Assembly (NCBI GenBank): GCA_965220135.1
Contig: OZ244802.1
Coordinates: 2,532,239 to 2,596,238, forward strand
From: Chloroflexota bacterium
GTDB lineage: Bacteria > Chloroflexota > UBA11872
Length of the DNA stretch: 64,000 bases
Direction of reading: 5' to 3'
Shown here: positions 50,127 to 54,027 of the stretch, piece by piece
Position numbering within the stretch: the stretch's first letter is position 1
Layout of the letters: the number at the start of each line of letters is the position of its first letter
Position numbers and translations under genes: made by a program
Notes under the pieces: model-generated
Told to the model about the DNA's origin: nothing
Seen by the model: the letters and a program-made list of their open reading frames with translations, nothing else
The model's database searches: none

Positions 50127-50534
50127 GTGATCATGGATACTGCGCCTGCTGCGCATTCATTCGACCGCTTGAATAGTAGCGACGCGAATGCCTGTCCCGA
50201 CTGTGCGCTGACATGTGTTCGTGGGCCGCCTCGGCGGTATGTGTCCTTTCACTGGATCGTGATGTCGTATGGCGAGTCGTAGAGAGGCCACTAGATGGAT
50301 AAATCTGAGGGAAATGATTGGCAAGAGCGAATTACCACAGAATCACTCCCACCATCCTAGGAGCACATTCGGTTGACAGCCGATAGCATTGGACTTGTAC
50401 GTCACTTAGCAATTGCATTTTGCCAAAAGATTTGGTGACATCTCAGTCTGTGGCCGGACGCAAAACCTCGGCAGGCATAGCAAATCGCGAAATGCGGGTC
50501 ACGCGGACATTGGGTTCATGATAGGATTCCTATA

Positions 50535-53258
50535 GTGCCTGCTTCGTCACTTCGTGAACGAATCGTTGCCTTTCTTCAGGTCTCAAGCCGCCTAGAGATG
50601 TTTCGAATACCGACTTTGCGCTTATTGCTGCAGGGCACGGCTGTGTCAAAGGTGCGGGTCTCGCTTTCCGGTGTTCTGGTCCTCCTGCCGCTCTTTGGTG
50701 TCATCGTGGCCCTCGGTATCGCGGAAACGCCACCAATTCCGTGCCTTCCAGACCCAAGGGACGCCACGGCGGTCCTTGGAACTATTCTGGCCGCACAAGT
50801 AACGATCACAGCCCTAAGTCTAGCCGTGACACTCTTCATGATGCAGGCGATAAGTTCGAGAACGGATGTCGACGACCGGATGTACGTTGAATATGTTCGA
50901 CGTTCTTGGATACGCGTGTTCTTTTGGGGGAGTCTCACAGCCGTCGGCGTTACGGGTACCCTCCTCGTCCGCGAAGGGTTCATCGCTGGGTCGGGCGCAT
51001 CGATCGATGATCTGCGGAACACTAGCAACTTCGTTCTGACGGCAGCGATAGCTTCTATTCTTAACATGATGCTCGTGGGTGCTCTTTTTGAGCGGTCGAT
51101 TCACTACTCTCGGCCGCACCGGTGGCGGGACCTGCGTAGGGATCTTGCGAAATCCGATGTGCGGGAAGCAGTAAAGGCCTTCGTGCAGCGGACCCGCCGC
51201 ACTCAGGACGCGGAGACAGCTGGTGGATCCGACTTCACAGTCTTGCTTCCCGACTCAACTGAAGGCTCTGCCGATGAGGCAGTAAGGGCCTTGCTGGACG
51301 ATGCACGGAGGGCGATGTCGGAGCGGCGACATGAGGAGTTTAGTCGGTCCTTGGACTTCATTCGAGAACTCATCGACTACGCAATGGAGGAACTAAAGGG
51401 ATCGGGTATCCAATGGGAAGCTCCAGGAACTCAACCAAGGTGGCCGCCCTTGAAGGAGTTAAGCCGAAGTCTCTACACATTCCGAGAAGACGTGATTCGT
51501 AGCGGTGACCGAGAGTACATACTCGGACTTCTGCGCTTTGACTACAGACTTACAAGTGCGGGGATGCGTGCGCGTTGTGGTGAATTGTTCAGTGTCGGCT
51601 TGAGCGGGCACCGATGGAATTACCAGATTGCGATCCGGTTCGGTACAGGAGAGTTCCAAGAGTTGCTCCGCGACCGATTCTCTCAGAACGCGAACATGAT
51701 CATGATACGCGTAGAACCAGTTGAGGCATTTCCGTACGCCAGCGAATTGGTTAAACAGCAAGAAAGGTTGCTATCAGATGCGATTAACAGCGACCGTCCG
51801 ACCGATTTTGACGAGCTGCATACTGGCTTTCTGGACTGCCTCCGTGCAATTCGTCTTCACTGGCGAGTTGATAGCCAGACTTCTCCAAGAGTATTTCAGC
51901 TATATGAAAAGCTGGAGCAAGCCTACCGCATTGTCCTGATGGGGCTCGGAGGGCGCGCTATGGTTCTGGCTCAGCAGGACAGGGTGGCCAGGGTGAAATC
52001 GTTCTTGGACGTAGCCCGTCGATCACACGTCGACCTTTGGCAAATGGCAGACGACTTAGTGGTTGCACTTGCGTATGAGGACAACGATAACTTCTCTATT
52101 TGGCAAGAATGGGAGACCGAACGCGCTCGACCATACCAAGCAATGAGTATAGTGTCCGAGCGTTATCCCCTAACGTTCTTTGTCTTACGACTGATGGATC
52201 TAGCTTCCGATTCGATGCGAGTTTTTGGCTTGCACGGCAGGTCGCAGCGGGTGCTTGATTGGTTCACGAACAACGTTGAAAGCATTGGACACTTTGTAGA
52301 CACGGACCTGGCCCCAGCCTTTGAGGAGCGAATTGAACTCGCCAAGGGGATCCTTCTAGCCGCTGTCAGTGAGGATGAAAAGGCGGAAGACTATGACATT
52401 ATCAACCGTGAAATTAGTTCAGCCAGGGTCGCGACGCTAAGGTCTGAGGTGTATATGGCTGCTTTTGGCAGTAACACACTAGAACGCCTGTTCGAGCGAG
52501 CAGATGCGCGCTTACACCTTCCAGCAGATGCTGGTGACGATCCTCCGGAACGCGTGATTCAGGTGTTAGAGCATAAGGGTTATCTCACAGAGCCGTCTGT
52601 TGGTGCGCTCATCGACTATGGCCCGCTTGATGGTCACCAATGGGGCTATGATCTGTCTGTCGACGTGCTGCAGAGATTCTGCGAGGCGGTCGATGAGGCG
52701 ACTGAGCTGATGGTTTCGCTCGATACGCCTGGCGAAGTGCTGCAAGGAATTGACTTGGCTATAGATGACCTTTCCGCTCCGGACCAATTGGCTGTGGTAT
52801 TGGCGGGAGATTGGACTCAGATTAAAGTAGGGCTCAACACAGAGAATCCGGAAGGTCATGAGGCGTCTTGGACGTTGTCGCGCGCCGACCGGGTGGGAGA
52901 GATAGGGCGTTACCAAGGCCATCCAATCCTCAGCGCTCAAGACTATGAAGATCGGTGCGTGTACGTTGTTGATCTCGCTGGGTGGGGTCAGTTCGTACGC
53001 GCACGGACAGTCGGGGAGCACGACTTGCGCATCGCGATAAAGCCGATCTCAGTCAATCGAGCCAAGAAACTCCTAGCAGCCAATCCCAAGCATTTCGCCA
53101 GTCAGCCAGACGAGGAGTCAAAGCTCCGGAAGCTACAAACCTATGTTGAGGTGGTAATCGGTGCCCGCACTGGGTTCCGCGTCGCAGACGCTACCCGTGC
53201 TCGGCGGATTGTCCCGATCGGCCAAGTGGAGGAGAGTGGCGAAGTGGCTCAACGCTAG
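50535..53258 (+). CDS. large membrane-anchored hypothetical protein (four N-terminal TM helices plus ~700-aa cytoplasmic domain of unknown function), low-GC
   Basis: 907 aa (the real start is possibly the internal MFRIPTLRL). TM helices near res 45-65, 85-110, 130-150 and 165-185. The rest is helix-rich with no Walker, nuclease or other motif I can assign. GC is clearly below its surroundings. Confidence 0.7.
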   Translation: MPASSLRERIVAFLQVSSRLEMFRIPTLRLLLQGTAVSKVRVSLSGVLVLLPLFGVIVALGIAETPPIPCLPDPRDATAVLGTILAAQVTITALSLAVTLFMMQAISSRTDVDDRMYVEYVRRSWIRVFFWGSLTAVGVTGTLLVREGFIAGSGASIDDLRNTSNFVLTAAIASILNMMLVGALFERSIHYSRPHRWRDLRRDLAKSDVREAVKAFVQRTRRTQDAETAGGSDFTVLLPDSTEGSADEAVRALLDDARRAMSERRHEEFSRSLDFIRELIDYAMEELKGSGIQWEAPGTQPRWPPLKELSRSLYTFREDVIRSGDREYILGLLRFDYRLTSAGMRARCGELFSVGLSGHRWNYQIAIRFGTGEFQELLRDRFSQNANMIMIRVEPVEAFPYASELVKQQERLLSDAINSDRPTDFDELHTGFLDCLRAIRLHWRVDSQTSPRVFQLYEKLEQAYRIVLMGLGGRAMVLAQQDRVARVKSFLDVARRSHVDLWQMADDLVVALAYEDNDNFSIWQEWETERARPYQAMSIVSERYPLTFFVLRLMDLASDSMRVFGLHGRSQRVLDWFTNNVESIGHFVDTDLAPAFEERIELAKGILLAAVSEDEKAEDYDIINREISSARVATLRSEVYMAAFGSNTLERLFERADARLHLPADAGDDPPERVIQVLEHKGYLTEPSVGALIDYGPLDGHQWGYDLSVDVLQRFCEAVDEATELMVSLDTPGEVLQGIDLAIDDLSAPDQLAVVLAGDWTQIKVGLNTENPEGHEASWTLSRADRVGEIGRYQGHPILSAQDYEDRCVYVVDLAGWGQFVRARTVGEHDLRIAIKPISVNRAKKLLAANPKHFASQPDEESKLRKLQTYVEVVIGARTGFRVADATRARRIVPIGQVEESGEVAQR

Positions 53259-53304: not shown

Positions 53305-54027
53305 TTAGAGCAGAGGACTCACGTCGGAAGCGACGCCGAAATGGTCCGAGAGTTTCCTCTCGCCGTGGATGTTGCTGATCGCAGCCACGGAGTCGACCGC
53401 CCAATCCGCACTAAAGGCAATGTGATCGATGCTCTTGCGTCCCTGGAAGGCAAGATCCGCCGTCATGATCCGCAGGTTCGGCTCAAAGGCCTCTTGGAGC
53501 GCCAGCCGAAGCGCCCGAGGCGCCCGGCTTCCCTGCCCGATTCTCTGGTTGAAATCCCCCATCACGATCAGACGCTTGGCGTCCACCTGTTCGAGCACTT
53601 CGGAAAGCCCGGTCAGGTACTCCTCATGGTCCTCCCACCGCCCTCTGCGCTCCGCCCCCCGCCGAGCCTCGGTCCGCGACCCAAACCACGGAATGCAGAT
53701 CCCAATCACCGCCACCTCGCCCACCGACGTCTGCGTCACGCCCGACACAAACCGCCCCGGCGGCATCGAGTCCATCCCCAGGTCATCAGCCTGGTTCCAC
53801 GGTTCCCTCGACCAGAGCAACACCTTACGCCGGTTCTTCTGTGGCCCGTATCCATACTCCGGCCGCGAGCAGATCGCGTGCCCAGATTGGGCAATTAGCT
53901 CGTCATGCGTCTCGGTCAGACAGATAATCTCCGGGCCATGTCGATCAATACGACCCAGGATTTCAGGCGTTCGCCACGACCTCGGCGTAGCAAACTGAAC
54001 ATTCCAGTTGACAATGCGCAGAGACAC
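53305..54027 (-). CDS. endonuclease/exonuclease/phosphatase (EEP, DNase-I-like) family protein
   Basis: MSLRIVNWNVQFAT...ICLTETHDE...LIVMGDFNQR...SIDHIAFSADW...LSDHFGV covers the canonical EEP blocks (N/E catalytic pair, GDFN, SDH). Confidence 0.8.
   Translation of the reverse strand: MSLRIVNWNVQFATPRSWRTPEILGRIDRHGPEIICLTETHDELIAQSGHAICSRPEYGYGPQKNRRKVLLWSREPWNQADDLGMDSMPPGRFVSGVTQTSVGEVAVIGICIPWFGSRTEARRGAERRGRWEDHEEYLTGLSEVLEQVDAKRLIVMGDFNQRIGQGSRAPRALRLALQEAFEPNLRIMTADLAFQGRKSIDHIAFSADWAVDSVAAISNIHGERKLSDHFGVASDVSPLL

Follow-up and report, generated by a model that had tools for sequence, protein, structure and literature searches.

The gene at positions 50535..53258 (+) of the window, the stretch of 64,000 nucleotides of a Chloroflexota genome analysed here, encodes a 907-aa inner-membrane protein computed to consist of three modules in order: a four-TM membrane module, an alpha-solenoid, and a C-terminal domain that, judging from its AF2 model, very probably has the HK97 fold, known from encapsulin shells and the major capsid proteins of tailed phages. 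We found no prior description of this 4TM-solenoid-HK97 architecture in the literature. As a tentative reading, to which we give somewhat less than an even chance, the capsid-fold domain would be a membrane-tethered self-assembly or recognition module of an accessory anti-phage factor acting by abortive infection or by interference with phage assembly.

The reading frame is unbroken (907 codons, with the stop codon counted in the coordinates), and the ORF list, the translation and full-length homologues identify it as a complete gene. Conservation of the N-terminal pattern SLRERI..W.Q in distant homologues supports the GTG start; the SLRERI motif belongs to a predicted cytoplasmic tail (residues 1-42, 50535..50660, +) that is nevertheless poorly conserved (mean pairwise identity 0.26) and modelled with low pLDDT (<50). 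Comparison with orthologues yields a dN/dS of ~0.29, and thus the gene is functional and under purifying selection. The upstream intergenic region (50177..50534, +), presumed to be regulatory, has the lowest GC content of the area (~0.49). No sigma-70-like promoter was found in it, the promoter, terminator and Rfam scans returned nothing useful, and the window contains no tRNA genes. In agreement with the preliminary description, which could not match the region from residue ~190 onward to any family motif, whole-protein searches of Pfam, PADLOC, NCBIfam and PDB sequences (phmmer) gave no significant match for this protein or for ten divergent full-length family members searched likewise. The sole match among the PADLOC-DB 2.0 defence HMMs, E1-E2, was at chance level (E 0.017, 11.5 bits), and this lack of a PADLOC match counts against a role in defence.

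The HK97-fold domain (residues 613-895, 52371..53219, +) went unseen in the preliminary description and emerged from structure prediction followed by a Foldseek search. The AF2 model, built from a 45-sequence alignment without templates, has a mean pLDDT of 83, rising to 85-95 in the C-terminal domain, and nearly all of the top 50 Foldseek matches are capsid or encapsulin chains at probability 1.00. The order of secondary-structure elements in the model is that of the HK97 topology: N-terminal helices come first, then a hairpin (659-680) where the E-loop would be, a long helix (701-719) that occupies the place of the spine helix, an alpha/beta part resembling the A-domain, and long C-terminal strands (870-894), so that the fold appears complete at ~280 aa. 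That the domain also occurs as a gene of its own, in a split variant treated below, speaks for the same assignment. Structurally the domain is slightly closer to encapsulins than to phage capsids, and this closer resemblance is just as compatible with a role in a compartment outside defence. Sequence comparison was silent: a C-terminal profile found nothing in the PDB at E<=10, and searches of PHROGs, and of Pfam with 38 C-terminal domains, gave no capsid or encapsulin match; this missing sequence-level tie to capsid or encapsulin families counts against the anti-phage reading. Matches to TOBE occurred in 4 of these 38 domains, and in none on a rescan of 10 divergent members. Variation in the HK97-like domain does not exceed that elsewhere in the protein (pairwise identity 0.49 vs 0.52; dN/dS 0.28-0.31); a domain tracking phage capsids might vary more, and this too speaks against defence.

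Four TM helices, claimed in the preliminary description, are recovered by hydropathy and by both AF2 models at about residues 43-64, 74-107, 126-152 and 164-191. From the placement of positive charges, both the N terminus and the large part that follows TM4 are predicted to be cytoplasmic, and the K/R-rich stretch after TM4 (12 K+R) indicates the cytoplasmic side. TM1 (residues 43-64, 50661..50726, +) has a hydropathy peak of 2.61 and is a helix in the AF2 models; it is weakly conserved (pairwise identity just 0.22) and anchor-like. TM2 (residues 74-107, 50754..50855, +; pairwise identity 0.71, entropy 0.44) is the best-conserved segment of the entire protein, with Q104 nearly invariant and Q88 invariant even between subfamilies that are ~20% identical. 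It is followed by an amphipathic juxtamembrane loop and helix (residues 108-125, 50856..50909, +; pairwise identity 0.69, helix 114-124 in the AF2 models) with an invariant D113 and a conserved R115, then by TM3 (residues 126-152, 50910..50990, +; AF2 helix 126-152) with an invariant T140, and by TM4 (residues 164-191, 51024..51107, +; hydropathy 2.16, AF2 helix 164-191). Given that TM2 and the loop average 69-71% identity versus 22% for TM1, and that the polar residues Q88, D113 and T140 remain unchanged at ~20% overall identity, the membrane module appears to be more than an anchor. A faint similarity to the membrane family DUF2254 (PF10011) recurs over TM2 in 9 of 45 members (best E 0.017; for the window protein, E 0.21 at residues 67-109). 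Membership in that family was rejected, the score being 10.8 bits against a Pfam threshold of 28.8, with only positions 40-77 of the 368-position profile covered. In both families several TM helices at the N terminus precede a cytoplasmic part; the match is nevertheless confined to ~40 residues, and DUF2254 is itself uncharacterised, with an uninformative literature.

Between the membrane module and the capsid-like domain lies an all-alpha cytoplasmic region of ~420 aa (residues 192-612, 51108..52370, +), predicted to be an alpha-solenoid of HEAT-like type, with conserved W303-P-P305, C348-G349, W523 and W526. The single helix-rich domain proposed earlier for residues 190-907 does not stand, since in the AF2 model only residues 192-612 are all-alpha and residues 613-895 are alpha/beta. 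When the N-terminal 612 residues were modelled separately, the structure search returned generic solenoid or helical-bundle matches only, with no channel or enzyme fold. A solenoid is a typical interaction scaffold, and the capsid-like domain could likewise have been kept merely as a compact interaction or regulatory domain that does not assemble, making the protein a membrane scaffold, a sensor or a transport-related factor. In agreement with such a role, nearly all of the family-wide invariant residues are structural ones (W, G, P, L, F), no motif ties the protein to capsid maturation, and the faint recurrent similarity of TM2 is to a membrane family. We nonetheless judge this explanation unlikely: to our knowledge all HK97-fold proteins form shells, the fold is complete with E-loop, spine-helix and C-terminal strand elements rather than a fragment, and the gene behaves in its genomes, as described below, like conflict or mobile cargo.

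The family, currently annotated as 'hypothetical', comprises >500 clusters at 50% identity, and all identifiable members belong to Dehalococcoidia, SAR202 or other Chloroflexota, whose representatives here are uncultured; one MAG carries two copies. Hundreds of clusters, at identities as low as ~20%, retain the three-module architecture over its full length. No relative was found in IMG/VR by a scan with three peptide patterns, and neither a tblastn search of 50,697 phage records nor plasmid collections gave a match, the latter speaking against a plasmid-borne gene. Portal, protease, scaffold, terminase or tail genes are not adjacent in the window, among 107 flanking ORFs or in 12 annotated contexts. 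A prophage or virion gene was rejected on the lack of a conserved neighbour, the missing portal, terminase and protease neighbours and the lack of matches in IMG/VR and phage records. The HK97 fold and the low GC content might suggest a decayed prophage remnant, in which a former major capsid gene and a membrane protein gene were joined accidentally; because the full architecture is conserved, this explanation is effectively refuted, and purifying selection, the lack of adjacent phage genes and the same viral searches also leave it extremely improbable.

The gene differs from its surroundings in composition (GC 0.548 versus 0.676 for the remainder of the window), and in 32 of 33 loci its GC content lies below that of the flanking sequence. 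In two relatives with the gene in the same chromosomal slot, the protein is 61-65% identical whereas flanking genes are 85-95% identical, and dS is two- to threefold higher for this gene (0.77-0.93) than for the flanking genes (0.28-0.56). The gene thus behaves like exchangeable accessory cargo and not like a housekeeping gene, and the deviating GC content and faster divergence bear out the earlier claim of horizontal acquisition. The duplicate copies between transposases, the two copies in one MAG and the copy within an integrative element point the same way.

A further explanation is an encapsulin-like assembly without a role in defence. Here the HK97-fold domains would polymerise on the membrane or around it, as capsomers, a lattice or a shell, with the TM-solenoid part as fused 'cargo', giving some Chloroflexota a membrane-associated compartment or coat, e.g. 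for sequestration, membrane remodelling or vesicle formation. In encapsulin cargo-shell operons the partner gene lies upstream and the shell gene follows; a split variant of the present family, in which the HK97-fold domain is a gene of its own overlapping an upstream TM-solenoid gene by 19 nt, has the same order, and in the top structural match, too, the cargo is fused at the N terminus. TM helices are also predicted in some Family 3 encapsulins (PMC8346489, which serves as general encapsulin background). Many metabolic contexts, good conservation of the protein and purifying selection are in accord with such an assembly. On the other hand, no dedicated cargo enzyme of the encapsulin type, in an operon or fused, was found in 33 loci, the N-terminal part has no enzyme fold, and there is no conserved operon partner. 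From the sizes of T=1 to T=4 shells we estimated that the 69-kDa N-terminal parts would give a lumen occupancy of 0.76-1.47, which argues against a closed shell of T=1 to T=4 holding all of them. True TM helices are hard to square with a soluble closed shell, and a gene that is patchy, deviant in GC content and replaced at a hot spot would be unusual for a physiological organelle. We regard such an assembly as rather unlikely.

The anti-phage reading draws on genomic context. In ~7 of 12 Pfam-annotated contexts (a raw count), defence or mobile-element genes lie within 10 kb, among them PDC-S11, Gabija-like OLD+UvrD, GmrSD, TIR, KAP NTPase, RES, MmeI-type and type III-like R-M genes, serine recombinases and transposases. 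One context combines Gabija-like genes with GmrSD, one TIR with an MmeI-type R-M gene, one an MTase with ResIII and PIN, and another KAP NTPase with RES and SNF2/NOV_C. PDC-S11 lies 0.9 kb from the gene in the window, whose neighbours include glyoxalase, EEP, DUF4268 and RCC1-repeat genes, and recurs at locus L039. Together with the divergence far above that of the flanks, these contexts make a defence role plausible. Several contexts are entirely housekeeping, and in 32 loci from species-representative genomes metabolic genes make up most of the two nearest neighbours per side, which argues against defence.

The preliminary description had also linked the gene to a convergent nuclease gene. 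An EEP-family gene is indeed present in convergent orientation (53305-54027, -), 46 nt from the target gene. The pairing is not family-wide: a search of 33 loci for a conserved neighbour found no neighbour family common to more than 4. The EEP gene is host-like in both GC content and divergence and conserved only in three syntenic genomes. It is a resident neighbour and not a partner, and on these grounds the nuclease was ruled out in the latter role. The broader defence-effector reading of the preliminary description thus loses its nuclease link and retains the architecture, a membrane module with a large cytoplasmic part and no enzyme signature, and the nature of the gene as an exchanged accessory.

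Some of the same contexts could point to a selfish function, in which the protein would be cargo serving its own mobile element, e.g. by exclusion of competing elements or phages at the membrane, by addiction or by maintenance. Duplicate copies sit between DDE and IS110 transposases, some copies adjoin large serine recombinases, and one lies within an integrative element with a recombinase, a relaxase and T4CP (a TrwB-like coupling protein). At most loci, however, neither element boundaries nor recombinases are seen within 10 kb, and in the window lineage the gene occupies a stable chromosomal slot. We consider this function improbable, and note that the selfish-element and defence readings overlap heavily.

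Under the proposed anti-phage role, the HK97-fold domain would be tethered on the cytoplasmic side of the membrane and serve there for capsid-type self-assembly, for capsid recognition or for both. It might interact with the capsid proteins of an infecting phage or with its assembly intermediates; alternatively, it might form capsomer-like pentamers or hexamers. Through the solenoid it would be coupled to the conserved TM2-loop-TM3 module; such modules, if gathered in a ring of 20-24 TM helices, could perturb or open the membrane, or capsid subunits might simply be trapped there. In the most specific version, which we hold to be quite unlikely as it stands, a domesticated capsid protein would be both the decoy and the oligomerisation switch of a membrane effector, and capsomer-like rings, formed alone or by co-assembly with phage capsid, would cluster the 20-24 TM helices, together with the invariant polar residues of TM2 and TM3, into an infection-aborting pore.

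If the fold assignment is true, this stand-alone, membrane-integrated family would represent a further independent recruitment by cells of the commonest viral capsid fold, and it provides a first structural handle on this family of the ecologically important Dehalococcoidia/SAR202. Should the domain prove to assemble or to bind capsid proteins, it would offer a testable new principle, the coupling of capsid mimicry to a membrane module, with a bearing on phage defence, on encapsulin-virus evolution in either direction and on engineered membrane-tethered cages. If the pore or decoy reading is true, a viral capsid fold would here, for the first time, underlie a cellular immune (or membrane-remodelling) protein. 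We know of no defence protein with a capsid-fold domain, and of no occurrence of the HK97 fold outside virions and virus-derived particles other than in encapsulins.

Of the known systems, Family 1 encapsulins (Linocin_M18, PF04454), especially the Pyrococcus furiosus virus-like particle (PDB 2E0Z), are close in structure. The present family differs from them in having no detectable sequence similarity and no PF04454 match, no enzyme cargo or conserved operon, a gene that is exchangeable accessory cargo, and a fused 4TM module and 420-aa solenoid too bulky for known shells; nor does it belong by sequence to any recognised encapsulin family (PF04454, Family 2, PF05065-like Family 3, PF08967). 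With tailed-phage major capsid proteins of the HK97 type (HK97 gp5, T4 gp24; Phage_capsid, PF05065) it has the fold in common, whereas it is membrane-integrated, lacks virion-gene neighbours and was not found in IMG/VR or GenBank phages. Abi systems commonly consist of a single TM-containing protein encoded in a variable island. That the major capsid protein can trigger bacterial immunity is established for CapRel-SJ46 (PMC9712102). The likeness to CapRel-SJ46 and to TM-effector defence proteins lies only in the possible way of working, and roughly half of the annotated loci have defence genes nearby; unlike them, the family has no homology, PADLOC match, toxin or enzyme domain to show. In the literature on membrane-anchored or defence-associated HK97-fold proteins, the sole precedent found for an HK97 fold with predicted TM helices is a subset of the Family 3 'natural product' encapsulins, described in Mesorhizobium (Andreas and Giessen 2021; PMC8346489), whose role is likewise unknown. 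Those proteins are PF05065-like and lie within biosynthetic gene clusters of Proteobacteria, whereas the family described here, restricted to Chloroflexota, combines an N-terminal 4TM module with a large solenoid and has no Pfam match or BGC context.

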